Below, piece by piece: positions 3,958 through 63,650 of a stretch of 64,000 bases of DNA (position 1 is the first letter of the stretch; every line of letters begins with the position of its first letter). The notes beneath the pieces were generated by a model. It was not told the origin of the DNA, made no database searches, and worked only from the letters and a program-made list of their open reading frames with translations. The position numbers and the translations under genes were made by a program. This DNA is from Pelagomonas calceolata (taxonomy: Eukaryota). The stretch covers positions 2,852,001 through 2,916,000 of the forward strand of contig CAKKNE010000003.1 in assembly GCA_918797485.1 (NCBI GenBank). The letters are read 5' to 3'.

Positions 3958-3979
3958 GCTAGCGGTGGTAAGACACTAG
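3958..3979 (-). promoter_or_regulatory. CTAG-box element (CTAGTGTCTTACCACCGCTAGC) in divergent gap
   Basis: Matches the window-wide consensus; lies between divergent genes. Confidence 0.75.
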
Positions 3980-4057
3980 AAATCTCTGCAAGCAAGCTGA
4001 GGCTGCTGAGCAAGCTCAGGACAAGCTAGCGCAATAGCAGCGCTGCGCCCAACACAA

Positions 4058-4426
4058 ATGCTGCTCGCCCGCCTCGGCCGCTCGCTGCGCGGCGCGGCGC
4101 CGTGCCGCTGGGCGCGGACGCAATTTAGCATCAGTCTGGAGGAGTTCCCCGCGGAGCTCGCCGTCGCGCGATTAAACAGGAAAGTACAAAAAGCGGGCCT
4201 GATGATGAAGTGGCGGCGGCGGCAACGCGGTTTTATCAAGCCGTCGCGCGTCAAGTACGACGCGCGCCTCAAGCGCCAGTACAAGCTGAGCTACCGACGC
4301 GTCCAGGACGTGCTGACCTGGATCGAGATGGAGCGCATGCTTTCGGCCTCGCAGCGGAAGCAGCGGCGGCGCGCGTCGAAGGGGGCGGGGCCCGCGGTCC
4401 AGGGCGGCGGCGGTGGGCCGCCGTAA
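4058..4426 (+). CDS. Mitochondrial ribosomal protein bS21-like
   Basis: Arg-rich presequence, then ELAVARLNRKVQKAGLMMKWRRRQRGFIKPSRVK, an S21-type motif. Confidence 0.75.
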   Translation: MLLARLGRSLRGAAPCRWARTQFSISLEEFPAELAVARLNRKVQKAGLMMKWRRRQRGFIKPSRVKYDARLKRQYKLSYRRVQDVLTWIEMERMLSASQRKQRRRASKGAGPAVQGGGGGPP

Positions 4427-4712
4427 GTTTATTGTGTGGTTTCTATTCCTGTTTGGTCGGAGGCCTAGCCTAGCCTCAATTTAACCGACGGGCTTGCGCG
4501 CGGTCTTGCGGACCCCTCCCCGCCTGTGCTAGTGTGTCTCTCGAGCTAGATAAAGTCAGCGCCTGAGATGTCAGAGCGGAGCGGATTTCGCGCCCCCTGG
4601 CCGCCCGTTTGAATGTTCGCCGCTGCCACGTGGCCATCAGACACCTGCCACCCCAGCCCGAAAAATAAATAACGCTAGCTGTGCCGAACCGGCTAAAAGC
4701 AGGTCCAGATGA

Positions 4713-5462
4713 GTGGTCCACTTTCAGCGTCCATTTCACGGAGCCGGCGCGCTAGACGGCGTAGCCCGACGACGCCACCGCGAGTTGAGGCCGCGCGCCG
4801 AGGCTGTGGCCGGAACGAGCCCTGGGGGATTTTTCAAACGCCGATCGGCAGGAGGGTCGTCCGCCAGATTTTTCACGCTGGACTGTCACGCGCGCCTCTG
4901 GACTGTCACGCGCGCCAACCACGCAGGCTTCTGGCAGGAGGCGCTCGCGAACCTCCAAAATACAATAGACGAGAAGGTCGAGGAGAGCGGCCTGCCGGAC
5001 AACCTCGCGGCGCTCCGCGACCGCGCGCTGAACACCGTCGACGCCGCGCGGGTGACGTGCCGGCGCGAGATAGAGGCCTTCCAGCGCGAGCAGGAGGAGC
5101 ATTTTAGTAGGCTCGACGCCGAGGCGGCAGCGGCCGCCGCGGACGCGGCCGACGCGGCGGCCGCGCAGCGCGCGGCCGCGGCGGCGCGAAGTGCCCTCGA
5201 CGCCATGGAGGCGCTGGCCGCGGAGCCGCCGTCGCCCTTACTTGACGAGCCTGCGCCGCCGCCACCACCAGAACCGCTCCACTCGCCGCCGACGGAGCGC
5301 CTCCTCGCGCGCCTCGCGGCCCTCAACCCGCTCGCCGACGCGCAGCCGCTCCCGCGAGCACAAAGCGAGGGCTCCGACTTGGTGGTCGTGGCGCACTCCG
5401 ACGCGGGCTCGTCCGTCGTCCTCGTCGACGCGGCCGACGCGGAAGACCCGCCACGACCATAG
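4713..5462 (+). CDS. Hypothetical coiled-coil/Pro-rich protein; 5' structure uncertain (possible acceptor near 4927)
   Basis: Coding-like, Ala/Glu-rich frame from about 4930 to the stop at 5462. Confidence 0.5.
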   Translation: MVHFQRPFHGAGALDGVARRRHRELRPRAEAVAGTSPGGFFKRRSAGGSSARFFTLDCHARLWTVTRANHAGFWQEALANLQNTIDEKVEESGLPDNLAALRDRALNTVDAARVTCRREIEAFQREQEEHFSRLDAEAAAAAADAADAAAAQRAAAAARSALDAMEALAAEPPSPLLDEPAPPPPPEPLHSPPTERLLARLAALNPLADAQPLPRAQSEGSDLVVVAHSDAGSSVVLVDAADAEDPPRP

Positions 5463-5661
5463 CTTTCCTGTCCCCGAAGTATACGTCTCTGTTTTTCTCG
5501 TATGTACTCTGCCGTGCCACTGCGCACGCACTGCATGCCTTCCAAAACCCGCGTTGACCAAAGTACTAGCCACAAGGGCACTTTCGACCGCGCGGCGATG
5601 GCGTGCTGGTCGAGTCGACCCCCACGCCGTCGACGCGGCACACGATATACTAGCAACACAT

Positions 5662-6261
5662 TTACTCGTCGTCGGCCATCGGCGACGACTCGGCCTGCGC
5701 CGCCGGCGAGCACCTCTCATAGATGTAGCGGTAGATCTCCTGGAACTGCGGCACGAAGCGCATCTCGAGCTTCGCGCCGTCGCGCAACGAGATGACGAGG
5801 TCGCCGACGTCCTTCGACCCTCTGTAGACGAACTTCATACCCGCGATGTCGCTATAAACAATCTCCGTGAAGTCCTGGCCGCCGACGCCGGACTGGACGC
5901 TGATTCTTCTAGAAGTGATCTTGTACTTGACCCAGGCCTGGCGCGCCGCGGCCGCGGCGAACGGCACGATGCCGATGACCGTGAGCACGGACAGGCCCGG
6001 CACGATGAGCTCCGTTTTGGAGGGCGGGCCCTCGAAGAACAATGTTTCGGGCTCGAGGACGGCCTTTTCCGCGACCGGGGCGGCCACGGGCGCAGTCTCC
6101 TCGACGGCGACGGGCGCCTCGCCGTCGAGGTCGGCGAGCTCGTCTAACAAGCGACCGCGCGCCGCCAATGCTGTCGGTGCTTTCACCCGCAGTCGCGGTG
6201 CGACTAATGCCGCGCCGGTCGTCAGCGCGGCAGCAAGGATGGCATTGGTTACTCGAGGCAT
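5662..6261 (-). CDS. Bacterial PH-domain (bPH_2/YdbS-like) membrane protein, plastid-type presequence
   Basis: FFEGPP..TM segment..KYKITSRRISVQSG..EIVYSDI..GDLVISLRDG, resembling cyanobacterial PH-domain proteins. Confidence 0.75.
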   Translation of the reverse strand: MPRVTNAILAAALTTGAALVAPRLRVKAPTALAARGRLLDELADLDGEAPVAVEETAPVAAPVAEKAVLEPETLFFEGPPSKTELIVPGLSVLTVIGIVPFAAAAARQAWVKYKITSRRISVQSGVGGQDFTEIVYSDIAGMKFVYRGSKDVGDLVISLRDGAKLEMRFVPQFQEIYRYIYERCSPAAQAESSPMADDE

Positions 6262-6504: not shown

Positions 6505-6529
6505 GCTAGCGTACTGTAAAGACACTAGC
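6505..6529 (-). promoter_or_regulatory. CTAG-box element in divergent gap
   Basis: Reverse complement reads GCTAGTGTCTTTACAGTACGCTAGC. Confidence 0.7.
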
Positions 6530-9152: not shown

Positions 9153-9174
9153 GCTAGTGTCTTAGCACGCTAGC
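9153..9174 (+). promoter_or_regulatory. CTAG-box element upstream of the 9349 gene
   Basis: GCTAGTGTCTTAGCACGCTAGC. Confidence 0.7.
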
Positions 9175-13130: not shown

Positions 13131-13391
13131 GGTCGTCGCGTTGCGAGCACGTAAAGGCAGCCTCTGCGGCGTTCACTCATGAGCCTTGTAGCTGCGGCTC
13201 GCCGGCGCCCCGCCTTGGTTCGGGCGTCGCGCCCGTCGCCACCTCTACAAGGTGCTCGTCGGAGGCGCTGTACGGCTCCGGCGCCGCGGGTGTTGCTTTT
13301 CGGCCCGCGCCGCTGCATCGCGGCTCCGCCCACTAGCCCTAGCACCGTAACAGATACAACGCCCCCCTCCACGCCATCGACGCACAGTTAC

Positions 13392-14551: not shown

Positions 14552-14575
14552 GCTAGTGCCTTACATGCCGCTAGC
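14552..14575 (+). promoter_or_regulatory. CTAG-box element in divergent gap
   Basis: GCTAGTGCCTTACATGCCGCTAGC. Confidence 0.7.
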
Positions 14576-15911: not shown

Positions 15912-16646
15912 CTACACCTCGCACGACTCCAAGTAAGGCGCCGACACCTTGCGGAAGGTCACGTCCATGGCGACCTCCGCGAGCTCGTCGAGCGGCTTCA
16001 CGATGAACGGGATCATCGCGAGGCCGCACGCGGTCGGCAGCGCCGAGATCACGCCGCTCTGGTCCACGCCTGATGCATCTAACAGAGCGACGACAATCGC
16101 CACCAGCTGATGAATGGTATACCCCGGCAGCGCGACGGAAGCCGCGAGCTGCCAGATCAGGGCATCCACACCTTCGATGGCAGCACAAGTGTTTATGTTG
16201 TCACCCGCGTACTTGGTCCCATCTAAGACTTTCTTCGTCTTATCAATAGTGTCCGCGATGACGTACGTGATCGCGACCGCATACGAGAAGGGCACGCACC
16301 AGCCCGGTGTTAATGGGGCGAAGGCCTCGCCGACTTCGTTCGCGTAGCCCGCATATCGTAATGCGGTATCCCTATAGATGTCCACCTCCCCCTCCTCGAC
16401 GGGGTCATTCGTCAATACTTCGCCGTTGTTGCCTAACAGCGCGCCTTCGAGTTTTGTGCCCTCCGGTTCTCTCCCGAGCAGGAACGCGCCGGTGCCCACA
16501 AAGCACGTGGGGATCGCCGCGTAGCCGGCGCACTGCTCGAGGACGACCGCGTCGATGGCGTGCAATTTTGTCGTTGTCCGTCGTGTCACCGGTGCGACTA
16601 ACGCCTCGGCAGTGGCGAGCAGCAGGAGAGTGCGTCGTCTGATCAT
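15912..16646 (-). CDS. MTFP1: MTP18/MTFP1-family protein with signal+transit-type presequence
   Basis: DIYRDTALRYAGYANEVGEAF..SYAVAITYVIADTIDK..WQLAASVALPGYTI..IPFIVKPLD. Confidence 0.85.
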   Translation of the reverse strand: MIRRRTLLLLATAEALVAPVTRRTTTKLHAIDAVVLEQCAGYAAIPTCFVGTGAFLLGREPEGTKLEGALLGNNGEVLTNDPVEEGEVDIYRDTALRYAGYANEVGEAFAPLTPGWCVPFSYAVAITYVIADTIDKTKKVLDGTKYAGDNINTCAAIEGVDALIWQLAASVALPGYTIHQLVAIVVALLDASGVDQSGVISALPTACGLAMIPFIVKPLDELAEVAMDVTFRKVSAPYLESCEV

Positions 16647-17235
16647 AGTGACGCGTGAATCGGTGAGTGGCGATTTGGGTCCACCGTTGCCTATAGGACG
16701 TATGGAAGCCTTGGCTAGCTTTGAGTGCAACGAGAGTGCGTATTTGGCAGCGGGGCGTGCAACAAAAGACAGGCGTGGCGCATTTTGATTCGGGTTTTGT
16801 CCGATGTTCGAATTACCTCTATCTCGTCGGAAACACGGATGCAAGACGAATTTGGACAGCTCGCGTGCCAAAAAACGGAGTTTCAGAGAGCTGCTCTCTT
16901 TGGTGATGAGGCTGCTGCAGGTTGGCAAACACACCGATCTGAAGCTCCACCAACACTCTGAGCAGCGCACGAGTCGCATTAATCACTCAAAGAAGCGCTG
17001 CCGCAAAAGCCGTCTGCTCTCTCGCAGAGCATACAGCACAAAAAACACAGCAAGCCCAGCAGCGTCCAGCAAACACGACGTCGACGCGGCGAAGACGACA
17101 CAACCAGATAGGGACAACAGAACTTATTGAATGTTGAGGAATTCTGCAGTGGAATCTCATTAGCTGAGCCGACACACAAAACACAAGCCGACGCGCGGCT
17201 CGAGCGAGACGCGACATAACACAGTTCACACAGGC

Positions 17236-18825
17236 ATGAGTGATTTAGTCATCGGCGTCGACGTCGGCACGGGAAGCGCACGAGCGGGCGTCTTCGACCT
17301 CGCAGGAAAGCGCCTAGGCAGCGCGACGCGGAACATCAAGACCTGGACGTATAACGGAGGTGACTTTGTCGAGCAGTCCTCGGAAAATATTTGGAGGAGC
17401 TGTTCGGAAGCCGTCAAGGAAGCTTTGGGGGATATCGCTAAAGATAGAGTCGTCGGCATCAGTTTTGATGCAACGTGTTCGTTGGTCGTGTTAGATAGCT
17501 CTGGGGAACCTCTATCCGTCTCCGACGAACAAGACTCGGCAAATGAGAGGAATATCATCGTGTGGATGGACCACCGCTCGGAACAGGAAGCGAGAGCTGT
17601 CAATGAAAAAGGCCACTCGGCATTAAACACTGTGGGCGGTGTCATCAGCCCAGAGATGGAGATCCCCAAGATCATGTGGCTTTCCAAACACAAGCCCGCA
17701 TGTGCACGGGGGAAATTATTTGATTTAGCTGATTACCTGACGTGGAGGGCTTCTGGCGTTAATGTGAGATCTTTATGTACGTTAGTCTGCAAGTGGAACC
17801 TCGACGCGGATAGTAACGGTGCGCGGTGGAACGACGACTTTTTGGCGAGTGTGGGGTTGTCATCCTTACGAGCGCAGTGCGACATCGGTGGTGAGTTCAA
17901 GGCGCCCGGTTCCGAGTTAGGAACGCTAACTCAAAAAGCATCTTCAGACTTGGGACTCAGTACGACAGTCAAGGTGGGCGTCGGCATTATTGATGCGCAC
18001 GCGGGCGGAATCGGGTGCGTCGGGGCGTCACAACACCCCATGGAAGGTAGATTGGCACTGATAGCCGGGACGTCGGCCTGCCACATGTGCTCGACCGAAC
18101 AGCCGTGCTTCGCTAAGGGTGTGTGGGGCCCCTACTGGGGGGCCATGGTCCCCGGCTACTACCTGAACGAAGGCGGCATCTCGGCCGCGGGTCAATTGTT
18201 AGACTTCTTAGTGCAGAATCATGCGGCATATGCTCAAATACCGGCGGACCAGAACGACTACGCTTACCTAAATAACCACTTGGCGACGATGGGTCCCTCC
18301 GTGGCTTTGCTCGCGCGGCACGTCCACGTCGACCCCGACTTTCGAGGGAATAGAGCGCCTCTGGCCGATCCGTCTAGACTAGGTTCTGTGGTGGGGTTGT
18401 CCTGCGACAACTCGATGGACGCTCTGGCTGTTTTGTATTTAGCAGCAGTACAATCAATAGCCTACCAGACGCGACATATCGTCGACCAACTCGTCGATTC
18501 AGGGAGAGCGCCGATCACGGAGGTGTTGATTACAGGAGGATTAGCGAAGAATCCGGTCTTCGTCCAGACTGTTGCTGATGCTCTACATGTGAATGTAGTA
18601 CTGCCCGAGGAAGAGGAGGCCGTGATGTTGGGGGCGGCCGTGCTGGGCGCGACGGGCGCCGGCAAATTTAAAGATGTGGAGACGGCGATGGCGGCGATGA
18701 CGCGGCCCGGCTCTACCATCAAACCGGACGCGTCTCTAGCAGCCTTCCACGACGCGAAGTACGCGTGTTATCGGAAGCTGTCGGCGGCGCAGAGTGAGTT
18801 GAGGGGGCTGATGGGGGCGGTGTAA
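17236..18825 (+). CDS. FGGY: FGGY carbohydrate kinase (D-ribulokinase type)
   Basis: IGVDVGTGSARA, FDATCSLVV, WMDHR, SPEMEIPK, IDAHAG, GTSACHM, PDFRGNRAPLADP. Confidence 0.95.
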   Translation: MSDLVIGVDVGTGSARAGVFDLAGKRLGSATRNIKTWTYNGGDFVEQSSENIWRSCSEAVKEALGDIAKDRVVGISFDATCSLVVLDSSGEPLSVSDEQDSANERNIIVWMDHRSEQEARAVNEKGHSALNTVGGVISPEMEIPKIMWLSKHKPACARGKLFDLADYLTWRASGVNVRSLCTLVCKWNLDADSNGARWNDDFLASVGLSSLRAQCDIGGEFKAPGSELGTLTQKASSDLGLSTTVKVGVGIIDAHAGGIGCVGASQHPMEGRLALIAGTSACHMCSTEQPCFAKGVWGPYWGAMVPGYYLNEGGISAAGQLLDFLVQNHAAYAQIPADQNDYAYLNNHLATMGPSVALLARHVHVDPDFRGNRAPLADPSRLGSVVGLSCDNSMDALAVLYLAAVQSIAYQTRHIVDQLVDSGRAPITEVLITGGLAKNPVFVQTVADALHVNVVLPEEEEAVMLGAAVLGATGAGKFKDVETAMAAMTRPGSTIKPDASLAAFHDAKYACYRKLSAAQSELRGLMGAV

Positions 18826-21331: not shown

Positions 21332-21354
21332 CTAGCGGCCGGTAACATACTAGC
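21332..21354 (-). promoter_or_regulatory. CTAG-box element upstream of ERO1
   Basis: Reverse complement reads GCTAGTATGTTACCGGCCGCTAG. Confidence 0.6.
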
Positions 21355-21470: not shown

Positions 21471-22916
21471 TTACTCGCCCGCGGCGGCCTCGCCGACGCC
21501 AGATAAATCAGACTCGTTCGCCCCGAAGCAGATGCCCAAACAAGCGGCGCGAAAATCACCTTTCAAACTCTTCTCGAAGCGCCCCTGCAGGGGCTTGTCC
21601 GGGAACAGCTCGTCGTGGCGCTTCGCAATTTTAAAAACGAAGTTCTTGTCGTGGCGGCCCAAGACCCTTGATAAAGCCTTCTCGTCGACGCCGTCGAAGC
21701 CACCTCCTAAAAATCCTGCTTTCAGCGCGTGGTCGATGACGATCGCGCCGTAGGTCACGGGCTCGTGCAGCCTCGATAGCAACAGCATCCTGAGGTTGCT
21801 TCGGCCGTTCTCGCTCTCCCACATACTATCAAAACGTTTGTCTGTCCTAACCTTCTCGACGACGTCCTCGCCTCCATAAAGTTCGGCGTACTTCTTCTTC
21901 AGCGCTCGGATATCCGCCGCGGACGCCTCGGGCAGAAACCCTTCCAAAGGGGCGACGCAGTCCTCGGAATCCGGCTCCAGTCCATCATGGATGGAGGTAG
22001 CGTACATCTCGATGACGTCGTTGTCCTCCGGCTTGTCGCCTTCTCGTCGCGTGGGAATGGCGTCCACAAATGCTAACAATAACTCAGAGTACTTGCCCGA
22101 CGTGTCGCCGTCGACGGCGCTCCGCAGGTCCTTCCCGTACTTCTCCTTGAAGTTGTCTGAGGCATATTTCAGTTCAAAGGCCGACCGTGTCCCGAGCACC
22201 TCGATGAGCTGCCCGTCGTTCGTGCCCCAGCCCGCCATGCTGTCGTGCAGGAACTCCACATCCAAATCCTCGGAAGGTGTCAAGAGACACCTCACGAGGT
22301 ACGGCAAAGGCGAGTCCCAGAGGAACCCAGACAGCTCCGACTTGAGCACGGGCAACAACGCCTTGCCGTGCTTCGCCTCGTACTCCTGCGCGATACCTAG
22401 GAGTTGCTCCTTGGATCGCGCCGTCAAGACATCGAGCAGCATCCGTTCGTTCGTGCCCCACCCAGCAATAGCTCGTTCGATCCGTTCCACGTCGCGCCCG
22501 CAGTTGAAGGCGTTGATCTGCCTAATGTCACAAGCTAACAACTGGTGCATCTTGCCCAGCTTCAACCCCTCGGCGACGGCCTGGAAGTACTGGCCCTTGA
22601 GCTCCTCGACCTCCTGGCTCTTCTGCGCGATCTCCGCGTCGAGCTGGGCATTCTCCTGCTCGATCTGCGCGTTCTCGCCCTCGTAGTAGGCGTTCTGCTC
22701 GTTGTGGGCGGTCAGCTCCGCCTCCAGCCCGGCGATGGCCGCGCGGAGCGCCGCCTCCTCCGGATCGACGGCGGGCTCGGGCTCGGCGGCGGGCGTCTCG
22801 GGCGCGGGCTGGCCGAGGAGCTCGGCCTTCTTGGCCTCGAAGTCCGCCTCCGTAATAATACCATCGTCCAAGAGCTGCTTCGTGTCGCGCAGGGCTTGTA
22901 CTGTGGCCGGGTCCAT
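21471..22916 (-). CDS. Annexin with N-terminal SHOCT-like motif and coiled coil
   Basis: GWGTNE..LLDVL, GWGTND..LIEVL, GVDEKAL annexin repeats. N-terminal LLDDGIITEADFEAKKAELL. Confidence 0.88.
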   Translation of the reverse strand: MDPATVQALRDTKQLLDDGIITEADFEAKKAELLGQPAPETPAAEPEPAVDPEEAALRAAIAGLEAELTAHNEQNAYYEGENAQIEQENAQLDAEIAQKSQEVEELKGQYFQAVAEGLKLGKMHQLLACDIRQINAFNCGRDVERIERAIAGWGTNERMLLDVLTARSKEQLLGIAQEYEAKHGKALLPVLKSELSGFLWDSPLPYLVRCLLTPSEDLDVEFLHDSMAGWGTNDGQLIEVLGTRSAFELKYASDNFKEKYGKDLRSAVDGDTSGKYSELLLAFVDAIPTRREGDKPEDNDVIEMYATSIHDGLEPDSEDCVAPLEGFLPEASAADIRALKKKYAELYGGEDVVEKVRTDKRFDSMWESENGRSNLRMLLLSRLHEPVTYGAIVIDHALKAGFLGGGFDGVDEKALSRVLGRHDKNFVFKIAKRHDELFPDKPLQGRFEKSLKGDFRAACLGICFGANESDLSGVGEAAAGE

Positions 22917-23290
22917 CCTGGATGCCGGTTGCTCCGTCGATCAATGCGGTGGCGTGGGGTGCGGCTCCGTCCGAGCGAGGAGGGCTCCCTCCGTAGACGC
23001 TGCCGCCCAGTCCTGGCCGTGGCGGCGGGCCTGGGGCTGCCGGAGATGGGCACGCAAGCCTGGCGCTGGGAGATGCTTGGATTTTGGAATTCGCGCGAGA
23101 CGCGCGCATGCGTCGTCGCGGAGGGGTCGGGTCCGGCGACGGATCGCGGGAGCCTTTGGAGCGGACGCTCGAGGCTCTCCGTGCGGGCACAACACAAGAG
23201 AGGCTCTGCCCAAGCAAGGAAACAGTGCGCCGCAGCACGCCAGTCGCCAAGAGAGGCTGCCCACAACAAGGAAACAGTGGCAGTCTAGCC

Positions 23291-24205
23291 ATGCACCTCT
23301 CCCCGGAGTTCACCCAGGACAGCGCCCTGGCCGCGGCCGTCGGAGGCATGGGCATCGGCGCCGTGGCGACGATCTTCGCGCAGACGAACCAGCGCCTCCT
23401 GCCGTCGGCCACGCCGGACGCCGAGGTCTGGACCGGCATGGTGGCCGGCGCCTTCGCGTTGGTGTCGAACCCGTTCTTCGCCCTCGTCGACGACGCGTCT
23501 TTTGAGGGAGATTCATTACGGGGCCTGGGCCTCGTGAGACTCGGCGTCGCTGGGTTGTTAGTGGGGGCGGGTTCAAAAATGGGTGCGGGCTGCACCTGCG
23601 GCAACGGCATCCAGGGCCTGGCCTGTTTCTCCAAGGCGAGCTTTGGATTCGTCCTGGTGTTCATGGCCACGGGGGGCCTCGCCGCGTACCTGGTGGGAAA
23701 CGACTTCGCGCCAGCGGCATCATCAGGGTTCTCGTGGCCGCTCGCGCGCGCCGTCGCGAGTGTCGCCGTCGCCCAGTTCTTCACGCGGACGAACAAAAAA
23801 GTGAGCAACGTGTTGGGGGGCTGCGGCTTCGCCGCGTCGCTCGTGCTTGCGGCGATGGTGAAACCGTCGAAGATCGAGGGTTTCCTGCACTTCTCGGCGG
23901 CGCGGGGCTGGGACCCGTCGCTGGCCTTCGTCATGGGCGGCGCGCTGCTCGTCGTTGGTGTGGCGTGGCGCGTCCTCGGGCTCGTGGACCTGCCGCCGAT
24001 GCGGGCCTACGCGGGCCGGCCGCTCGACGCGAAGACGCTCGTCGGCGGCGCGTGTTTTGGCGCGGGCTGGGGCCTCGGCGGGCTGTGCCCGGGCCCCGGC
24101 GTCGTGAGCGTCGGGACGGGCTCACTCCCGGCCGCGGTGTGGCTCGGGGCGATGGTCGCCGGCCGCGGCCTCGCGAGTACGGCCCCCGCCGCGAAGGCGA
24201 GCTAG
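23291..24205 (+). CDS. YeeE/YedE-family sulfur-compound transporter
   Basis: LVGAGSKMGAGCTCGNG, MVKPSKIEGFL..WDPSLAFVMGGA, FGAGWGLGGLCPGP. Confidence 0.9.
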   Translation: MHLSPEFTQDSALAAAVGGMGIGAVATIFAQTNQRLLPSATPDAEVWTGMVAGAFALVSNPFFALVDDASFEGDSLRGLGLVRLGVAGLLVGAGSKMGAGCTCGNGIQGLACFSKASFGFVLVFMATGGLAAYLVGNDFAPAASSGFSWPLARAVASVAVAQFFTRTNKKVSNVLGGCGFAASLVLAAMVKPSKIEGFLHFSAARGWDPSLAFVMGGALLVVGVAWRVLGLVDLPPMRAYAGRPLDAKTLVGGACFGAGWGLGGLCPGPGVVSVGTGSLPAAVWLGAMVAGRGLASTAPAAKAS

Positions 24206-27393: not shown

Positions 27394-27417
27394 GCTAGTG
27401 TCTTTATAGACGCTAGC
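27394..27417 (+). promoter_or_regulatory. CTAG-box element in divergent gap
   Basis: GCTAGTGTCTTTATAGACGCTAGC. Confidence 0.7.
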
Positions 27418-28024
27418 TATCGCTGCACGGCAAAAATTCATTTACAAGCCGTTGATTTCCGCATGGCTGGCGACGGCGCGCTCGACGCGCACGCGTTTGT
27501 GTCATAGCCAGTGTCCGCGGCCGCGGCCGCGAAGCGAGTGTGCTTTGTTTTTGTTTTTTTTAGATATCATAGATAGACGGTTCACGAATTTATTATTATT
27601 ATTCTACTACTGGTCGTCTTCCGTCTTATAAGATGGGCACGTCGGCTGGCGCAATACTAGGGGGCATCCTCGTCTCCCGGGTCCCAGTCAGAAGGCGGCG
27701 GACAAAGGTGAACGGTCCACCTCGGTAGACTGGCCATCGACTCACACAATTTTTATAGCTTCAGGGATTTGACGCGTTAACGCCGGTTGGAGAAATGATG
27801 ATTTTATTAGATACACCCGAGTCGGTAGGACGGTCTACGGTCTACACTGGAGCGCAGAGTAACCCGACTTGCAGGCGAAGCTAGTGTGTCTGGTCGCTAG
27901 GTCCCGGCTTTTTTTGGCGCAGCGAAGCCACCGAAGAGGACCACCTGCAGATCAAAATTCGTCACTGTTCGTTGCGAACGACTCCTACAAAAAAGATCCG
28001 CACGCTGCTGCGGTACCGTCAGCA

Positions 28025-30113: not shown

Positions 30114-30137
30114 GCTAGTGTCTTACCTGCCGCTAGC
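30114..30137 (+). promoter_or_regulatory. CTAG-box element upstream of the sulfotransferase-like gene
   Basis: GCTAGTGTCTTACCTGCCGCTAGC. Confidence 0.75.
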
Positions 30138-33513: not shown

Positions 33514-34272
33514 GCTTTTTGGTCACGATCGAAGCAGGAGTCGGCTTAGTTCGATCTGTGTGGTGCGATTGCGCTGCTTTTGCTTGGCTCGAGCTGGGGC
33601 TAGTAGGTCTATGACGCTAGGTGAGTGGCAAAAATATCCTTGCCTCCACCGTCGCGCGCGGCGTCCCCTCACCCCAAAAACTATACGTGGGCCCTCTCAC
33701 AGCCCGCGCTGAGCCTCCCTGAAACTTACAGGCCGCGCGAGGTCGCCTCCAGACAAAACCAGACATTTTTCCACACAATTGATTCAGACGTGGGCTTTGC
33801 GCGCGGCGGGCGGAACGCCGCGCGTCGCCTGCCTCTGAATACCCCGACGTAACCCCGGCAACCCCGCAGGCACCAAACCGGCCCGCTGCGCCCTACCGGT
33901 CCCACGTGCGCCAAGTACCGACGATCCAGCAAGCCGCGCATCCTCCTCCAGGGCACTCCTAGAAATGAAGACGAGGTCAAGGCGAAGCCCCCCTCCTCTT
34001 ATGAGTGGAGCGGCCAGCCCAAAATTTCCTCCTTCTTCTCGGCGAAGAAGTAGGCGTGCAAGTAGGCGCCGGGCCGCGCTCGAGTGCTCGCCCTCCCCAG
34101 GCCTCCGCAAGGCGGACCCCGAAACCTAAATTAGCGTTTCTTCTTATCTTAATCGTACTACCCCCAATCACGCAGAGCCCTTCGAGGCCGACACGCATCC
34201 GATGCGGCCACCCGGCGCCGAAGAAGCCTCAGGGCGCACGGCCGCCCCGTCGACCGCAGTGGGAACTCCTCC

Positions 34273-34430
34273 AGTGAGCCGACGCCCGAGCCCACGACGT
34301 CGCCGACGCCCGAGCCCATGACGTCGCCGACGCCTGCGCCGACCTCCAGTGAGCCGACGCCTTCGCCGACCTCCAGTGAGCCGACGCCGGAGCCCACGAC
34401 GTCGCCGACGCCTGTGCCGACCTCCAGCGA
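34273..34430 (+). repeat. Tandem repeat encoding a Pro/Thr/Ser mucin-like tract (SEPTPEPTTSPTP...)
   Basis: Repeated units AGTGAGCCGACGCC and ACGTCGCCGACGCC. No convincing host gene. Confidence 0.75.
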
Positions 34431-35217
34431 CCGGCGTCTGCGTCGTTCTCGTGCGTCTTGCGCGCGGCGTCCAGAGGCTCCTGAGTCGCGTCGACCCGCA
34501 GCGCATGGACGGCCTCGAGGGACGGCCGGAGAGCAACTGCGCCGCTCGCGACGGCGTCGATCATGCTCTACATTACATGCGGTGCGTGCTCGCGCACCGG
34601 AAGCGTGCGAAGCATATCACGAAGTGCAGCGGCGACGCGGGGGCGGCGACGCCGCACCCGTCGCCCAGCCGCTCTCTCGCCGAACCACGGCGCGCACACG
34701 GTCGGAGAGGACTGGGCATGCTGTGCGCAGTGGCCTCGAAGCGCCTCTCGCGCCGCGCTCGCGCTGCTCGCGAAGACCGCTCGACGGCCAGCGCTCGCGC
34801 GTGCCGCCGCCACCGCACCAGCGCAGCCAGCGACGATGCCAAGCGCCACCGCTCGCTGGGGCTCGAACCGCGTACAAAGCGCACCGCACTATGCCTGGAG
34901 CACCCGGGCACAATGCCACGGCTCGCAGCCGTCATCGTTCACGTCGTTCACAGCGACGCATCGATGCGCCGCACGAATCCGCCCAGGAGAGCAGGTGTTG
35001 CAGCAGCATGGCAGCAGACTGCTGCCGGGCGAGAGCCGCAGGCACGGGACGGCTCGACCTGAAGGTCCAAAATGGCACCGTTCCAGAACTCCAAATTCGG
35101 TGGGGTGTTGTTATCTGGGGATCTCAGTTCAGTCCGTCACAGTCCCTCGAGGCTGAGCTACTGGCTAGACATACTAGATTACAGCCAGGAGTAACCCGTT
35201 ATACGAATATCGGCCTT

Positions 35218-35280
35218 GGTAATTACCAGTAATTACAGGGTAATTACAGGTAATTACCAGGTAATTACCGGGTAATTACC
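35218..35280. repeat. Six tandem GTAATTAC palindromes at 10-11 bp period
   Basis: Copies start at 35219, 35229, 35240, 35250, 35261 and 35272. Confidence 0.9.
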
Positions 35281-36042
35281 TTACCGGAACTTAACCTGGT
35301 AACTCGCCGCTCTACTATATGCAGGGCAACACCCACTCCCAGTTTGGGCTTGGCATGGTCGTCCAGCCAAAAATCGCATCCGAGGCGTATCTCGGGATCC
35401 CCTCGCCGTCGCACAATCACCGGTAGCAGTGACGTGACCCGTCTAGGCCTCGCCTCAATCGTCGACACGCGCTTCGGCGACCCCAACGAGCCGCTCCCGT
35501 AGCGCGGCCGCCAGTGGGCGGGCCTCGACGAGAGTGACGACGACGAAGACGATGACGACGACTGAGCCGCTCCTGGAAATCACGCTTTCTACACACCACT
35601 TACATACATGTGCTCATGGCTTGCCAAAGCTCTCGACGATGTCAAGTCATCGCGGCGGCGGCGGCGACGGACGCGCTTTCAACTTGTATCGGCTCGAATT
35701 CCCTGTGCTGTGGCTCGACGATGTCAAGGCATCTCGGTGACACGTACTGCTCCTTCAATCCACACCCACAATCTCCACTCATCTTGGGACGAAGTGTGCA
35801 CTTCCTCGGGGGTCTTCCTTTACTCAATGAATGAATCTAAGCTGCTGACCAAGGCGGTCTCGGCGCTTGTCTTTCGCAGGTTTACGACAGCGGCGGCGGC
35901 GGCGACGTCCTCCTAGCATCGTACAACGACGCCGCCGAAGAGTAGGAGCGGCGACGACCGGACGGCGCCGGCGGCGACGGCGAAAACAACGAATAAATAA
36001 TAGCCTTCTTACAATATACAAGTGGGGGGGGAATATGATGAT

Positions 36043-37164
36043 CTACCGCGAGTAGGCGACGCTCCGGTCGCGCTTTACCAACTTGCGCGGCTCGACGTCC
36101 GTCGCGAAGAGCTCCTCGTTCTCGCGCGCGACCTTCGCCATCGTCGCGTTGAGGTCGGCCGCGCCGATGTGGATCTTCCAGGACTCGTGGACCTGTGTGG
36201 AAATCAAATTTCGAGCGCCCCACGCCACCGACGCGACGTGCTTTCCGGTAGCTGCGTCTGCGCGATGGCGTGGCGATTCCACGCCATCGAGGCGACGTTG
36301 TCTCTGTGGCCGCGTCGGCTCGATGGCGTGGAGGTTCATAACCTAACTCACTGGTTGATTTCCACACAGACGTGGACGTTCTTCTTGCGCAGGAGGTTGT
36401 GGACGGCGAGGCCCCGCGCGGCGGCCTCGAGCTCGTAGGCCGAGGGCGCGCGCGGGTTCGGCAGGCGCATGCCGACGGCCTTGAGTTGGGACGGTAATAA
36501 GGACGCCTTCTTCGCGTTGCAGGCCGTGCAGGCACACACGGTGTTCTCCCACGTCGACGAGCCGCCGTAGGCGCGCGGCACGACGTGGTCGCACGTGAGC
36601 AGCGACGGCGGGAAGGAGTCCTTGCAGTACTGGCAGCGGTAGCCGTCGCGCAGCATCATCAATCTTTTACTAAACTTGGGCGCCTTCTCGGCGCCGCGCT
36701 TCTCGTAGTTGCGGAGGACCACCACTGAAGGTATGGCGAACGAGGCCGACGCCGACCGCACGCGCACGTCGTAGGAGCTCACGACGTGGACGCGCTCCTG
36801 CCAGGCGGCCTTGACGGCGTCCTGCCACGACCAGACGCTGAGCCTGCGGCGCGTCGACGGCGTGATTAGTGCGCGTATATAAGTTTCTGACGCGGGGGCC
36901 GCGCGGGAGGTACGACAGGGGCTGCCAGTCCGCGTTCAGCACGAGGCAGGTGTGGCCCTGGAGCTGCGACAGGCGCCGCGCGTGGCCGTCGACCTTCTCC
37001 GGCGGCGTCGAAGGCATGCGCTGGGCCTGCTGCTGCTTTCGCGCGGCCCGGCGGCGCGCGAGGCCGCGCGCGAGGGGCTTCTGAGTCCCGAACGTCGTCC
37101 GTGGGATCAGGCCTCGCGCGGCGCCGACGAGGAGGCCCGTGATCGCCATCTGTTTCACTTTCAT
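36043..37164 (-). CDS. HNH endonuclease (McrA/HNH_5-like) with organelle-type presequence; introns 36844-36904 (GC-AG) and 36193-36377
   Basis: The spliced product reads CLVLNADWQPLSYLPLSVWSWQDAVK..PSVVVLR..RDGYRCQYC..LTCDHVVPRAYGGSSTWENTVCACTACNAKK..VHESW. Confidence 0.9.
36193..36369. mobile_element. Introner-like TIR element (copy 3)
   Basis: Perfect 15-bp TIR CTGTGTGGAAATCAA/TTGATTTCCACACAG. TSD TCGTGGAC/ACGTGGAC (7/8 match). Forms intron 36193-36377 (-). Confidence 0.9.
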
Positions 37165-39788: not shown

Positions 39789-39974
39789 CCGCGGAGATAC
39801 TAGAAGATACCACTGGGGAATCCCGGATTAATAACTGCCTCCCACGGTCCTAGTTGTCCATAACACACTACGAATCGTATTAATGTACGCCGTGCCCCTA
39901 AAACGCAGCCCCCGCGGCGGGCCGCGGCTAGGCGGCCTAGCTCTTAAGCAAGCAACCTCAAAATATTTCAAATT

Positions 39975-39997
39975 GCTAGTATCTTACAAGCCGCTAG
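39975..39997 (+). promoter_or_regulatory. CTAG-box element upstream of the J/U-box gene
   Basis: GCTAGTATCTTACAAGCCGCTAG. Confidence 0.7.
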
Positions 39998-44974: not shown

Positions 44975-44997
44975 GCTAGTGTCTTACAGCCGCTAGC
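44975..44997 (+). promoter_or_regulatory. CTAG-box element in divergent gap
   Basis: GCTAGTGTCTTACAGCCGCTAGC. Confidence 0.75.
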
Positions 44998-48444: not shown

Positions 48445-48465
48445 CTAGTGTCTTACAGCGCTAGC
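48445..48465 (+). promoter_or_regulatory. CTAG-box element in divergent gap
   Basis: CTAGTGTCTTACAGCGCTAGC. Confidence 0.75.
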
Positions 48466-50915: not shown

Positions 50916-51136
50916 GCTTCGTTGTTACAGTGGAGTGAGACTCGCCGACACTAGGGCGAACGCGACAGATTCGGTGCGTGATACTTTGTGCTTGGTGTTT
51001 TGTGTTTTGTGTGCCGGCTCGCTGCGATTGCGCAGCGATGTCGTGCGAGCTATGACGGTCTATTTATGCTGATATTCCGCAGCGCTGGCTCACATTACCC
51101 GGTTTTTTTGTATAAGTTGGGGGGCGACGATTGCGT

Positions 51137-51160
51137 GCTAGTGTCTTACGTGACGCTAGC
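51137..51160 (+). promoter_or_regulatory. CTAG-box element in divergent gap
   Basis: GCTAGTGTCTTACGTGACGCTAGC. Confidence 0.75.
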
Positions 51161-53033: not shown

Positions 53034-53162
53034 ATGGGCTTGGGCTCTGTGTACAATGGCTAAGACATCGTTGAACTTTGTTTGCGGCGTTGCTGCTGTG
53101 ATATCTCAATGCCTAATACTGTCATACGCTGCACACAGCGTCTCGGGGCCATATTTTTGGTA

Positions 53163-53185
53163 GCTAGCGGCATGTAAGACACTAG
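53163..53185 (-). promoter_or_regulatory. CTAG-box element in divergent gap
   Basis: Reverse complement reads CTAGTGTCTTACATGCCGCTAGC. Confidence 0.75.
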
Positions 53186-53338
53186 TTTTCTCCAGGCCTT
53201 CCACTGTATCGATTGATAACCTGCATTGTGGTCGAGAAGGCTCGGCACCCAAGGTCTCTCGTAGTCCACTCGTCGACAGCAGATCACTAGTTGGCCACCA
53301 TAGTTTTACTGGGGGGTCCAAAACACCAAAAAAACACC

Positions 53339-54928: not shown

Positions 54929-55172
54929 GCTTGCTTGCCAACGATTGGTGCTCGTTCGGCGTCTGTGCAACGCGGCGTTTGCGGCAGCAGTCTCGGTGAT
55001 GCTGCAGGGCTTGCTGTGCCAGCGATGGTGAGTTTGCACGGCACCGCGATTTCTTTGCAAGCCTCGTTGCCACAGCGTCTTGGTGATGCAGTAGGGCCCT
55101 TCGTGACGGAGTAGCAGTGGCTAGCGAGTTAGCAGCGGCGGCCTGAGGCAAGCTCAAGGACGAGGGCTGAGC

Positions 55173-55195
55173 GCTAGTGTCTTACGACTGCTAGC
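55173..55195 (+). promoter_or_regulatory. CTAG-box element in divergent gap
   Basis: GCTAGTGTCTTACGACTGCTAGC. Confidence 0.75.
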
Positions 55196-58419: not shown

Positions 58420-59130
58420 CGTTTCGCTTTCTCGCCGCGCACGCGGTCTCAACGGGTCCGCGCGCGGCGTAGCACGTGGGGATCCTTTGTTCGCAAGGCT
58501 GGAATCGCCAACTGAGCCGGATTTCGCCGTGCACGCTTCTCCCGCTACAAGCTGCGTATAGATGCGCTACGCGCACAGCGTGGCGCGCGGATACGACCGC
58601 CGTGCAGCAACTACAGGCGCTCTGATGTGTCTGCCTGCGGGCATGATGGACTCGTGCCGCGCAAAATCGAAGGTACGGCAAACGTGGTAAAGGAACGAAT
58701 GGAACATAGACGCATCGCCCGCGACGCGTGGCGTGCGCGATTGGAGGCAGGATGGGGGAGAGACAACCAGCAAAACACCACAGCTCCCTCGCGACGCAAG
58801 CGTCGGCTTTCGGGACGGAAGGAGTCCTCGAGCGTTCCTGTTCTCGCGCGGTGGCCGTGGGCACGCGCAGACACAGGCCGCTCGCTTTGGCAATTGGCAA
58901 GCGGCGGCAGCGTTCCTCCCTGCTCTGTTTTATCGCTTCCGTGTGCCGCTTTCGAGCCGCTTTTTTTTGGCGGTCCGGGCAGCATATCGGTTTCGCTGCG
59001 TCACAGTGCGTACAAAGCACACATAACCTCAAAGCACAGCCGAGCTTCGAAGACTGCTGCGCAAAGAATAAAAGCGGATATTTGCGGATCCGCGCTACCG
59101 CCGTCAAGGAACGAATAGAAGCAGTGACCA

Positions 59131-59540: not shown

Positions 59541-59815
59541 TGAGTGGGGTAAATAAGATTATTTTGTAACTTTTCATGTTAGACGACGCCCCTAGCGTGT
59601 GATAAGAATCCGCAGAGCGGAAATTAAGCTCTGAACTTCACTATTCGGAGGTCAGTCGGAGAGGTCTGTTTTCAAAAGCCATCCGCCTAGGCCTGTATAC
59701 ATGCATACTATATTTATGTATATATATTGATTCCTAGTATGTCCATACGCTAGCTCACTAGGTCTTGCGGCTCGCCAAAGTACACCAGCGATTGACGGTG
59801 TCTTCTACCGTCCAA

Positions 59816-60423
59816 ATGGTACATCATATCAGCTCCAGTCCAGTTTTCATACACATTCGACGGAACCGGAGCCGACGGCCGGCGCGGCTACGCCGCCTGG
59901 CCCGGCGCGCGCGGCCCCGGAGTTCGCGGTCCCGCGTCGCCTTCTCCGACGCGGACCTCGCATCGGCGGCGGACGCGGACGCGGCGGCGGCGCTGGCATC
60001 GCACGCTCCCGCGGACGCGGCGGCGCCCGCGGCCGGCCTCGAGCGCGAGAGTTGCGATACGACGCAGGGCGACACCGACGTAGACGTCGCCTCGCAACTC
60101 TCGCGCCTCTCGGTCGCTGGGGCCGAGGCGGAGCCCCGCAGCCCCCGGTCGCCGCGAACGCCGAAGGACGCGTGCGTCGTCTGCTGGGAGCGGCGCCGCG
60201 AGGTGGCCTGCTACCCTTGCATGTGCGTCGCGGCGTCCCGGAGATTTCCGCTGATACTTCACTTGACACCTCGATTGCGCGGAGACACGCCATCGCCGCG
60301 GTCGTCTCAATGTCTGATCCGCGCAGGCACGTCTGCCTCTGCGCGGCGTGCGCCGGCGCGGCGGACGCCTGTCCCATGTGCCGGCGGCCCGTCGAGGACG
60401 TGTTCCGCGTGTTCCTGTCTTGA
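59816..60423 (+). CDS. C3HC4 RING-finger protein; intron 60223-60326; start uncertain
   Basis: Spliced: CVVC..PCMHVCLCAAC..CPMCR. Confidence 0.75.
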
Positions 60424-60634
60424 TTTCTTCATCATCATCGTCGTCGTCGGCGTTCCGCGGCTCTTATCTATATATGAAGCATCTTCTAAGCATCTTCTGC
60501 TAGTGTATCGACATACTAGGCTTAAAGGAGCTTTGGTAAGCCAGCTGCACTTCAGGCAAGGCTGCTGGCGGACGAGCGGCGATAATAAGAGCGTTGCCGC
60601 GTTGCCAAGGCTGCTGTGACGAGCGCTGCAACGG

Positions 60635-62646
60635 ATGCGCGCGCCGCAGCTCGTCTACACCGCGACGGCCTGTGCAGCACTGCGGGCCGCGGCGGTGCGA
60701 CGGCTGAGGCCGACGCGCCGCCTCATCAACATGCGGGGCCTCGACGCCTTTGCCGCCGCCGCCGACGCGAGCTGGACGCGAGCATTGAACGCCGACCCCG
60801 AATCCAAGCAGCACGAGCCGAACAAGAGCTCGCGGCGCGTGAAGAGCGGCCACTACGTCCCCGTCGTGCCCACTGCTTTACAATCGCCGGAGCTCAAATT
60901 GCATTCGAAAGAACTCTGCGAGGAACTAGGCTTGGCGGAGGCCGACGTCAAAGACGAGCGCTTCGCGCGCTTCTTCTCGGGTGATGTGGATGCGCTGAGC
61001 CTGGGCGCGACGTGGGCGACGCCCTACGCGCTGAGCATCATGGTGCCGACTCAGCGTGAAATGAACTTGAACCTGACGCGGTCGCGGCGATGGCGTCCTC
61101 GCGATGCCACCTCGCGTCGATGTCGTCTTCACGATCACATGAGAGTCGACGCGTCGCGTGGATGTATGACGGCGTCCGTGCCACACAGGGCGAGCCGCAG
61201 ACGCGCAACTGCCCCTTCGGCACGGGCGAGGGCTACGGCGACGGGCGGGCCGTGTCGCTCGGCGAGGTTGTTGTAGATGACAAGCGGTGGGAGCTCCAGC
61301 TGAAGGGCGGCGGGCGGACACCGTTCTGCCGGGGCGCGGATGGCAGGGCCGTTTTGAGATCTTCTCTCAGAGAATTTTTAGCGTCGGAGGCGATGCATTT
61401 TCTCAGAGTGCCTACTACAAGAGCTTTGTCGTTGGTCGTATCGCGGACGGAAACGACGAAGCGGCCGTGGTACTCGGGCGCGCGCGACGACGCCGTGCCC
61501 GCTCCGAGTATAAGCGAGGACGACCCTCGCTTGGCCAAGTTCCCGCCACAAGTCCGGAAGCAGCTCATCAGACAATTGATGAGGCAGGGCGGCGACGATC
61601 CCGACGTGATGATCGAAGAAAGCTGCGCCATTACCTGCAGGGTGGCTCCTTCTTTCTCGCGAGTGGGCCACGTCGACTTGTTTTCCAGAAGGGCGCGCCA
61701 GGACGCCATGCGGATGACTGAGTATGAGAAGATCGTGCAGCACGTCATCGCGCGGGAGTACCCGGAATTACTTGGTGAGGACGCTACTAGATTGCCCCAA
61801 GTCGACGACTTAAAACCGGTCGCCCTGAAGTTCGCCGAAGCGTCTCGAGAGAAACTCGCGTCCCTCGCGGCGAACTGGCTGCGCGTCGGCTTCTGCCAGG
61901 GCAACTTCAACGCCGACAACTGCTTAGTTGGAGGAAGGACCATGGACTACGGCCCCTTCGGCTTCCTGGATCAATATGATCCTTCCTTCGCGAAATGGGT
62001 GGGGTCTGGCGACCACTTCGCCTTCGCCAATCAACCTGGCGCTGCTTTAGCGAACTGGGGGACCCTTGTGAGAAGCTTGGCCCCGTTGTTCGATGACCCG
62101 GCGCCTTTACAAGCTTTGCTAGATGATGCGCACGGTTATTTTCAAGCCGCGGTCGACGATTGTTATAGACGCAAGCTGGGCTTTCCTGATGGTGTGGATG
62201 CTTCTGATAAACCCAAGTCGTTGTGGCGGCGGCTCGAGCCTCAATTAAGGGGCCTGGACTACACGATCTTTTTCCGGGAACTGATGAACTGCGTCGAGGG
62301 CGGCGACGCGTCTGTACTAGAGAAAGCGTGCTACGAGCCGCTGACGGAGGAGAAGCGGTCGTTCTTGAATGAATGGTTAAATGACTGGCGTTCCGCATTG
62401 GGAGACACGGCGGGTGTCGCGGAGCGCATGCGTCGCGAGAACCCCAAACATATATTGAGGGAGTGGATGCTCGTCGAGGCGTATGATGCCGCCGGCGCGG
62501 GCGACTGGTCCGTGGCCGAGGAGCTCCACGAATTGATCAGAGAGCCGTACGCTGATAGGGCGCAACTGGACAAAAAGTACTACCGGCGGGCGCCCGATGC
62601 AGCTTTACGGCGGCCGGGGACGGCCTGGATGACCTGATCCTCGTAG
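60635..62646 (+). CDS. SELENOO: Selenoprotein O (SelO/YdiU AMPylase); intron 61043-61188; Sec at TGA 62635-62637
   Basis: YGDGRA, ELQLKGGG.TPF.RGADGRAVLRSSLREFLASEAM, QGNFNADN, DYGPFGF. Ends MT-U-SS-TAG, like the TUSS end of animal SelO. Confidence 0.93.
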
Positions 62647-62667
62647 GTCCCCGTTTGCGTTCTCCAC

Positions 62668-62728
62668 CCCCGCGTGATATATGACGTCGATGCGCGCTTC
62701 GTTGGCGCGTATTGGCCGAGCCGCGGGG
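62668..62728 (+). promoter_or_regulatory. SECIS element in SELENOO 3' UTR
   Basis: Helix I CCCGCG/CGCGGG; core ATGAC (62681-85)/CGAG (62717-20); 12-bp helix II GTCGATGCGCGC/GCGCGTATTGGC; loop TTCGTTG. Confidence 0.8.
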
Positions 62729-62835
62729 TTTCGGGAACGCACCGTGCTCCTAGTGTCTTAAGGGAGCGTTCGTGTTTTATGTTGTTTCGTCGCGGCGATG
62801 GCGTCTACTTGGTAGTGTTTTCGCGAGGAATTTAC

Positions 62836-63450
62836 TTAATCAGGCGCGAGCACGACGTCCAGCACCCGGTCGTGCGCCTCGCGCGGCACGCGCTCGGAGG
62901 ACGGAAGCACCTGCGCGCCCAGGCACACGCCGACGGTCGCCGGCCGCGCGACCGCGGCGGCGTCGGCCGCCGCGTCGGCGCGCGCGAGCCAGTTGTCGTA
63001 GAAGCCCGCGCCGTGGCCGAGGCGGCCGTTGTCGCAGTCGAAGGCCACGCCTGGCACGACGACGAGGTCCACGCGCGCGTCGAGCGCGTCCTCCCGACTA
63101 TCGTCGCGCGGCGGCTCGGCGATGCCCCAGTTCGAGCGGGGAAACGCGTCAATGTCCGCCATGGAGAAGGCCTCGACCATGGCCATGTCCCGCGCCTTGA
63201 CGTCCTCGACGCGGGGCAGGAAGACGCGCTTGTTGGCCGCGAAGGCGGCCTCGAGGATGGGCGCCGTGTCAAGTTCGCCGGGCATGCTGCAGAAGGCGCA
63301 GACCTTCGTGGCGCTTTTCCAATTGTCCCGCGCGAAGAGGCGCTGGGCGACGCGGGCGCTCTCGCTCTGGATTTGAGTAGCTGGCAACGCAGCACAGACT
63401 GCCTTGATGGACCGGCGCAAGGCCTTTTTTGCGGCCAGGATTTCGACCAT
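62836..63450 (-). CDS. MTHFS: 5-formyltetrahydrofolate cyclo-ligase
   Basis: KKALR, ELDT, WGIAEP, DLVVVPGVAFD..RLGHGAGFYD, HDRVLD. Confidence 0.95.
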   Translation of the reverse strand: MVEILAAKKALRRSIKAVCAALPATQIQSESARVAQRLFARDNWKSATKVCAFCSMPGELDTAPILEAAFAANKRVFLPRVEDVKARDMAMVEAFSMADIDAFPRSNWGIAEPPRDDSREDALDARVDLVVVPGVAFDCDNGRLGHGAGFYDNWLARADAAADAAAVARPATVGVCLGAQVLPSSERVPREAHDRVLDVVLAPD

Positions 63451-63627
63451 ATTGAGCTATTACAGCTGCACGGCACTTTTGCACAGCTACACTGGCTTGA
63501 GTGTGAACGCTCGTCCAGGCGTCGCAGCGATGGCGTGCTGTTCTCTGTGCTATCTGAGGCGCCTCTGCCAGCACGGCTGACCTTCGACGGCCGCCGTAAC
63601 TCGTGCTTTTGCCGCTGGCAAGTGCTT

Positions 63628-63650
63628 GCTAGTGTCTTACAACACGCTAG
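63628..63650 (+). promoter_or_regulatory. CTAG-box element in divergent gap
   Basis: GCTAGTGTCTTACAACACGCTAG. Confidence 0.75.

Follow-up and report, generated by a model that had tools for sequence, protein, structure and literature searches.

A paired CTAG element ahead of genes in Pelagomonas calceolata, a candidate two-way promoter site

What is the short sequence with two CTAGs that recurs between genes in Pelagomonas calceolata? The question is raised by a 64,000-nucleotide (64-kb) stretch of contig CAKKNE010000003.1 (assembly GCA_918797485.1, positions 2,852,001 to 2,916,000), referred to here as the window, which is gene-dense eukaryotic DNA with 44 curated genes. The original prediction had proposed either a lineage-restricted promoter element, used in both orientations and bound by a dimeric factor, or a domesticated transposon end. 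The first proposal is supported, since the element is absent from genes and convergent gaps, is anchored to ATGs and RNA 5' ends, is used on both sides and varies within restricted base alphabets. It probably binds a single abundant protein, dimeric or with two domains, that opens TATA-less promoters both ways.

Occurrence and placement of the element

Training on 42 copies, those of the window among them, gave a two-part weight matrix that found 21 sites of at least 18 bits in the window and none between 10 and 18 bits, against a chance level of 0.1 matches of at least 14 bits (20 Markov simulations). The 14 close copies, five variants and one half-site (62750) reported earlier were all recovered in place, and the matrix added two weaker sites that lack one CTAG (35158 and 39850). 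The 12-mer CTAGTGTCTTAC, with up to two mismatches, matched 15 times; 100 shuffles averaged 1.65 matches and never exceeded 6. The 16-19 bp separation of the two CTAGs also held: among the 125 CTAGs of the window, 19 pairs fall at these distances (5, 5, 8 and 1, respectively), where about 0.24 would be expected per distance.

None of the 21 sites lies inside a gene body, although gene bodies take up 49.8 kb (p = 2e-14), and the element was found in 0/15 convergent, 9/14 divergent and 9/14 tandem gaps of the window. The element had been described as a mark of head-to-head promoters, but the label is too narrow because tandem gaps carry the element about as often. Genome-wide figures given here combine the window with 123 metagenome loci, drawn from 2 of the 64 parts of a collection, in which genes were called with our own hidden Markov model. 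Among the locus gaps without the search seed, the element was present in 0/50 convergent, 12/26 divergent and 5/18 tandem gaps, while the seed-holding gaps were 2 convergent, 23 divergent and 22 tandem. When all gaps not picked by the search pattern were pooled, 35 of 72 divergent or tandem gaps contained the element compared with 0/65 convergent ones (Fisher p = 1e-12). Convergent gaps are short, yet a per-base test of its absence still gave p = 3e-4.

The element keeps its distance from the gene that follows it. In the 34 tandem gaps measured, the downstream ATG lies a median of 186 bp from the element with a standard deviation (SD) of 62, with 97% of values in the range 60-300 bp versus 59% by chance, and none of 20,000 random placements was as tight. 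The distance to the upstream stop codon has an SD of 278 and tracks gap length. Neither side is preferred: gene starts face the two element ends in 79/106 and 77/107 cases, at medians of 182 and 190 bp, and orientation in tandem gaps is even (15/34, p = 0.61). In divergent gaps there is mostly a single copy for two genes, and the GC skew around the element, G-rich on the left and C-rich on the right, is the pattern expected of divergent transcription.

The element is present genome-wide in Pelagomonas-type DNA. The exact pattern occurs in an estimated 6,500 or so metagenome stretches, as extrapolated from the 2 of 64 parts that yielded the 123 loci. When 10 locus proteins were looked up, two were identical to named P. 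calceolata proteins, two clustered with such proteins and four fell in clusters without that name, in line with a likely origin of the window in P. calceolata or a close relative. In loci L012 and L030, whose coding DNA is 82-87% identical, the same pair of genes flanks the element, and therefore the element spans more than one lineage. For the JACLAA contigs, a search with GcvT gave nearest clusters at 86-99%, with Chrysophaeum at 64% and Aureococcus at 63%.

Two other sources were considered and rejected. Viral origin or mimicry found no match to the full pattern in the viral search; viral contigs (37-62% GC) gave 11 looser and two extension matches, none with the full consensus, and these were taken as chance. 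A prokaryotic element was set aside after eight matches in 596 Gb, two taken as chance and six, in marine bins, as chimeric: for five of the six a contig end is no more than about 420 bp away, and the remaining one lies in a 3-kb eukaryote-like end. The contigs concerned (L124-L128 and L131) come from marine prokaryote bins, bear the element at their ends, several with eukaryote-like genes, and are probably chimeric.

Sequence anatomy

The short consensus first proposed proved incomplete. The full consensus is TGCTT-GCTAGTGTCTTACAGGCCGCTAG-CT, obtained both from 127 distinct pattern matches and, independently, from 22 unbiased copies of 18-bp spacing. The element measures 24-30 bp, and its central 24 bp form an imperfect palindrome of the half-site GCTAG-Y-G-K-C. 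The right arm is GCTAGC in 109/127 copies and the left arm is GCTAGT. This asymmetry is retained, as T after the left CTAG together with G before the right CTAG occurs in 35 of 45 unbiased pairs, whereas the perfect T...A occurs in four.

At the free spacer positions of 89 copies, one position has G58/T19/C9/A3 and the other C58/A28/G2/T1. At four-fold codon sites transitions are commoner than these transversions (CT 10 vs AC 5; AG 11 vs GT 3), which is an imperfect baseline because codon bias acts on such sites. Bases of the keto (G/T) and of the amino (A/C) class are indistinguishable to a protein in the major groove, and thus degeneracy of G with T and of A with C fits base readout by a protein; from these restricted alphabets, binding of a protein at the element appears likely. 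The spacer variants did not resolve into linked subfamilies, the best of six tests (p = 0.026) being not significant after correction. Eight homologous promoter pairs kept the arms, while the spacer differed in seven and its length in three. The 60-bp flanks of seven diverged homologous pairs are 32-77% identical, compared with 36% for unrelated pairs.

An inverted pair of arms could also form a hairpin or cruciform like that of a repetitive extragenic palindromic (REP) element, or a small structured RNA. The arms can pair if two G-T pairs are allowed, and one of six folds beat its shuffles (z -3.2). The other five (-1.8 to -2.7 kcal/mol) did not beat theirs, and because folding is this weak the element is not regarded as a hairpin. 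Moreover, the T...G asymmetry is retained in most unbiased pairs, C-to-G variants of the left arm are uncompensated, the preference of REP hairpins for convergent or 3' gaps is absent (0/65 convergent gaps), mapped RNA 5' ends lie outside the element, and Rfam gave no match in the window or in 10 loci (E 0.1). This reading is already largely refuted and is given hardly any weight here.

RNA starts and promoter features

Four stranded poly(A) RNA runs of one sample, covering 40 of the 64 kb and 14 of the sites, were used to locate transcript starts. Among the pile-ups listed, RNA 5' ends accumulate 14-49 bp outside six of the 14 covered sites. At five promoters the distance from element to 5' end has an SD of 8.6 bp versus 54 bp for the distance from element to ATG. 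At site 53164, starts on opposite strands lie to either side of the element, 66-95 bp from one another and each 20-49 bp from a CTAG, and at site 60500 SelO starts on one side and strong antisense RNA on the other. Element-bearing promoters are TATA-less and flanked by T-tracts: on sides facing a gene start, no bin has TATA-like words in more than 1% of flanks, and TTTTT occurs 25 times at 8-28 bp outward of the element against 6.9 expected, as sense-strand T-tracts on both sides. The sites of the window are listed below, where spacing is the CTAG-CTAG distance and distances of 5' ends are to the nearest CTAG.

3959..3979, minus strand: element, spacing 17, 30.7 bits; divergent gap flanked by GST and ribosomal S21 genes
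4529..4549, plus strand: variant element, 19.7 bits; plus-strand RNA 5' ends at 4563-4571 (14-22 bp)
6506..6528, minus strand: element, spacing 19; divergent gap
9154..9173, plus strand: element, spacing 16; tandem gap, ATG 9349 lies 176 bp on
14553..14574, plus strand: element, spacing 18; divergent gap with an IMPase gene on one side and a Kelch gene on the other
21332..21353, minus strand: element, spacing 18; tandem gap, ERO1 ATG 173 bp on
27395..27416, plus strand: element, spacing 18; divergent gap of 827 bp with two sites, this being the first
27881..27900, plus strand: variant element, spacing 16; second in the 827-bp gap shared with 27395
30115..30136, plus strand: element, spacing 18; tandem gap, homologous segment in locus L083
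33600..33620, plus strand: variant element, spacing 17; F-box gene ATG 87 bp on
35158..35177, minus strand: weak site with one CTAG broken, 19.1 bits; doubtful
39850..39871, minus strand: weak site with one CTAG broken, 18.1 bits; shares its gap with 39976
39976..39997, plus strand: element, spacing 18; tandem gap ahead of a DnaJ/U-box gene
44976..44996, plus strand: element, spacing 17; minus-strand RNA 5' end at 44937 (39 bp)
48445..48464, plus strand: element, spacing 16; divergent gap
51138..51159, plus strand: element, spacing 18; minus-strand RNA 5' end at 51094 (44 bp)
53164..53185, minus strand: element, spacing 18; RNA 5' ends at 53139 (minus strand, 25 bp) and 53205-53234 (plus strand, 20-49 bp)
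55174..55194, plus strand: element, spacing 17; minus-strand RNA 5' end at 55135 (39 bp)
59734..59753, plus strand: variant element, spacing 16; ahead of a RING gene
60500..60519, no strand assigned: near-symmetric variant, spacing 16; antisense RNA 5' ends at 60468-60470 (minus strand, 30-32 bp), SelO gene start at 60635 on the opposite side
62750..62761, plus strand: left half-site alone; convergent gap
63629..63650, plus strand: element, spacing 18; 5-formyl-THF cyclo-ligase ATG 179 bp on

Starts so close to the element, and the opposed starts around site 53164, would also suit a true core-promoter element standing in for the TATA box, whose factor recruits the general machinery and fixes the start, instead of working by removal of nucleosomes, in the manner of M1BP or SNAPc, proteins that recruit the transcription machinery directly. 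The absence of TATA boxes points the same way. Classical core elements are directional and act at a fixed distance, whereas this element has no side bias and its start distances spread over 35 bp (in RNA-seq, not cap-based, data). It is also missing from about half of the promoter gaps, and most of the highly expressed genes examined are without it. A core-promoter role is quite unlikely.

The site density of one per 3 kb could alternatively reflect a boundary, roadblock or replication-origin site that is found at promoters merely because these are the open DNA of a compact genome. At site 59734, five antisense molecules of one run end exactly at the element, and yeast general factors also act as roadblocks (PMC5052057). 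The coupling of the element to the downstream ATG rather than the upstream stop, its absence from convergent gaps and a GC skew that fits divergent transcription speak against such a site, and this reading is judged very improbable.

The antisense RNA just mentioned is an observation in its own right. It runs on the minus strand over 59734-60470, beginning 30 bp from site 60500, and reaches a depth of 81-211 (bin 60009-60675) across a RING gene (59816-60423, plus strand) that is itself hardly expressed. A splice-site or RNA reading of the GTAAG on the reverse strand was rejected, as no splice joint starts at the element and 5' ends fall outside it.

Promoters of the window that have no element contain isolated half-matches only (33723, 58873 and 62749), rather than degenerate sites. 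Two of these are right-half matches without a left arm (58873-58887 and 33723-33738), the former placed directly ahead of the 5' ends of cytochrome c (58891-58908), within a gap otherwise reckoned element-free. Element-free divergent gaps number five rather than the three first counted, the additional ones being 16646-17236 and 22916-23291. The divergent pair formed by the cyanate lyase gene and its neighbour (866-1450 and 1787-2686) is highly expressed without the element, with sharp 5' ends at 1521/1528 and 1695-1717. Weak site 35158, 594-866 bp from its annotated neighbours, may not be a promoter site; it falls in a poorly annotated 2 kb (33999-36043) with tandem repeats at 34263-34430 and GTAATTAC repeats at 35219-35285. 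Introner-like repeated introns were also noted at 2842-2927, 3242-3301, 36195-36369 and 61042-61187, and 2849-2881 attracts thousands of matching reads from other places in the genome.

Shared extension, candidate factor and meaning

The flanks had been described as unshared between copies. This is correct for the window (0/21), while genome-wide 12 of 170 distinct copies (13/175 matches) run into a common right-hand extension of about 45 bp, carried by 9/122 seed and 3/27 non-seed copies. The extension, GATTTCCTAAACGCGGGAGCCCTGGAAGCC with the core CCTAAACGCGGGAGCCCTGGAAGCC, lies on the CGCTAG side after a variable linker of a few to about 50 bp; at L033 it is inverted, on the opposite side and 123 bp off. 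Inserts with short duplications separate core and extension in L021 and L028, and L100 and L111 contain tandem units. The extension marks either a composite element, in which a second factor has its own site, or the remnant of a seeding cassette.

The element might accordingly be the surviving core of a mobile or duplicating cassette of about 75 bp (core plus GATTTCCTAAACGCGGGAGCCCTGGAAGCC), which spread into promoters, with mobility as the main cause of the pattern and a regulatory site or a neutral relic as its present state. In favour of this are the extension, which these copies, unbiased ones included, share with one side and one orientation, and the inserts and tandem units; a surplus of information over need, and the promoter segment around site 30115, which recurs with its element in L083 ahead of a different gene, point the same way. 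No target-site duplication was found above shuffled pairs (k = 3-8, 162 copies), cores with the extension are no closer to the consensus than others (35.3 vs 34.6 bits, p = 0.61), and no transposase was seen beside any inspected copy, though no systematic search was made. The variable linker, the inverted case in L033, the binding of position to gene starts and the avoidance of transitions by the variant bases also speak against it. As the main cause, mobility is unlikely. The transposon end of the original prediction is thus not supported as a present explanation, given the missing target-site duplication and the tie to gene starts, but the element may have a mobile origin because 12/170 copies share the extension; longer shared sequence, which had been set as a ground for refutation, does occur, in about 7% of copies. 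An origin from a cassette is compatible with a promoter factor using the element today.

A left extension that copies seemed to share belongs to a distinct repeat, whose distance from the element varies over 45-177 bp. This intergenic repeat of about 80 bp contains GTGCTAGGACTAGTGGGCGG, is sometimes tandem, often accompanies the element at that distance, also occurs alone and is possibly a miniature inverted-repeat transposable element (MITE). It was noted in the window at about 13325-13365 (minus strand) and at L028:3202, L053:2179, L064:2080, L085, L089, L090, L049, L011 and L029, and gave no Rfam match in the four loci tested. L021:3884 and L088:15 share another repeat, with CTAGs 18 bp apart as a perfect inverted pair around a different middle, beside a GC hairpin; telomere-like repeats lie near it in L021.

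Several observations weigh against a site read by one promoter-opening protein. Besides the extended copies, the element holds about 28 bits where 12.6 are needed at its density, which is beyond one ordinary factor's need. The conservation of arms in homologous pairs is biased, as both members were picked by the search pattern, and 4/149 locus matches lie within predicted genes and 2/47 seed gaps are convergent. The 5' ends were read from standard poly(A) RNA-seq on a single sample rather than from cap-based data; eight of the 14 covered sites have no pile-up among those listed, and some pile-ups are inside genes (47679, 47850, 61762 and 15402). Expression depths are rough, being eye estimates from bins of 667 bp, and some genes are affected by cross-mapping. 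By a sequence proxy, neither CG nor AT showed a nucleosome-period signal in phase with the element (P 0.22-0.61), nor was such a period present in bulk sequence by the same proxy. An earlier apparent phasing was discounted because it was produced by the transition from untranslated region to coding sequence.

For the promoter-factor reading, the mechanism would run as follows. Each half GCTAG-Y-G-K-C would be read by one domain in the major groove, with a flexible link in the protein accommodating the 16-19 bp between CTAGs. The bound factor, together with the T-tracts, would maintain a short nucleosome-free gap, into which polymerase II would load on either side to give moderate constitutive expression, like Abf1 or Reb1 in yeast. 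Genes with the element were moderately expressed, with a median depth of 23.5 (n = 22) in the rough bin values, versus 117.5 for genes without it (n = 8; p = 0.007), which are mostly high.

The Abf1 site is itself bipartite, with a fixed spacer. Sites of the yeast general regulatory factors (Abf1, Reb1, Rap1 and Cbf1), as described in PMC2897762 and PMC3875857, occupy many but not all promoters upstream of starts, are helped by poly(dA:dT) and form a lineage-specific repertoire; a large but partial share of promoters, the upstream position and flanking T-tracts are common to the Pelagomonas element, which by analogy may work like them. It differs in having an unrelated sequence of 24-30 bp and about 28 bits, with spacing variable by 3 bp, and nucleosome depletion is only presumed here. 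Factors of bidirectional promoters in animals (NRF1, BANP and ZNF143, and M1BP and DREF of Drosophila) likewise use palindromic or bipartite sites a short way ahead of TATA-less promoters of housekeeping genes, in many cases of two genes at once, with other sequences and protein families and, as far as is known, a smaller promoter share each. MITEs and bacterial REP elements are short, numerous and intergenic with inverted ends; these features are shared by the element, and its minority of longer copies may be a further likeness. Unlike them, it has no target-site duplication and a weak, uncompensated hairpin, and is anchored to 5' ends, not to 3' or convergent gaps.

Which protein might bind is a more speculative matter. 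Promoter palindromes of Toxoplasma, GCTAGC (the TgAP2XI-5 site) and GCATGC, are single 6-mers tied to cell-cycle timing (PMC13734140 and PMC6631176), and the right arm of the element matches GCTAGC in most copies. In comparison, the element has two inverted arms around a middle that is conserved and asymmetric, is far longer, lies nearer the start and belongs to a stramenopile, and between groups so far apart the 6-bp likeness may be due to chance. The available part of the P. calceolata annotation table (PMC9481584) has at least 30 IPR001471 (AP2/ERF) entries, and among the 23 of 30 listed many also have Myb, PHD, CW, SET or MBD domains. Because GCTAGC is the TgAP2XI-5 site and 30 such entries exist, the organism's 30 or more AP2/ERF-domain proteins are a lead, albeit a speculative one.

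A bolder account joins the two origins: one protein, from or with a mobile cassette, took over about half of Pelagomonas promoters, the unit of about 75 bp being the seed and the 24-bp core the domesticated site, with polymerase II positioned on both sides in place of TATA. It would account for the 28 versus 12.6 bits, for a discrete family that does not trail off into weak sites and for the longer form of some copies, and on balance we hold it to be unlikely.

The element is unusual in its length, flexible spacing and promoter share, and it is apparently undescribed in the literature searched, which covers few subscription papers. The P. calceolata genome paper contains neither 'motif' nor 'CTAG' in its preprint and neither 'motif' nor 'promoter' in its published text, and GCTAG is absent from four readable supplements, one of them readable in part. 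A full-text search for CTAGTGTCTTAC in both orientations returned one unrelated yeast paper, and 'motif' is absent from a Hi-C preprint mentioning Pelagomonas.

P. calceolata is an abundant open-ocean picoeukaryote. At the window density (21 per 64 kb) the element would, by extrapolation, occur about 10,000 times per genome and would be the genome's main recognisable promoter signal. It could serve as bait for a first pelagophyte general promoter factor, as a predictor of start sites, as part of a two-way expression cassette and as a marker of algal DNA contaminating prokaryote genome bins. With its length, variable spacing and longer minority form, it may also offer a test case for the seeding of a housekeeping promoter network by mobile DNA.

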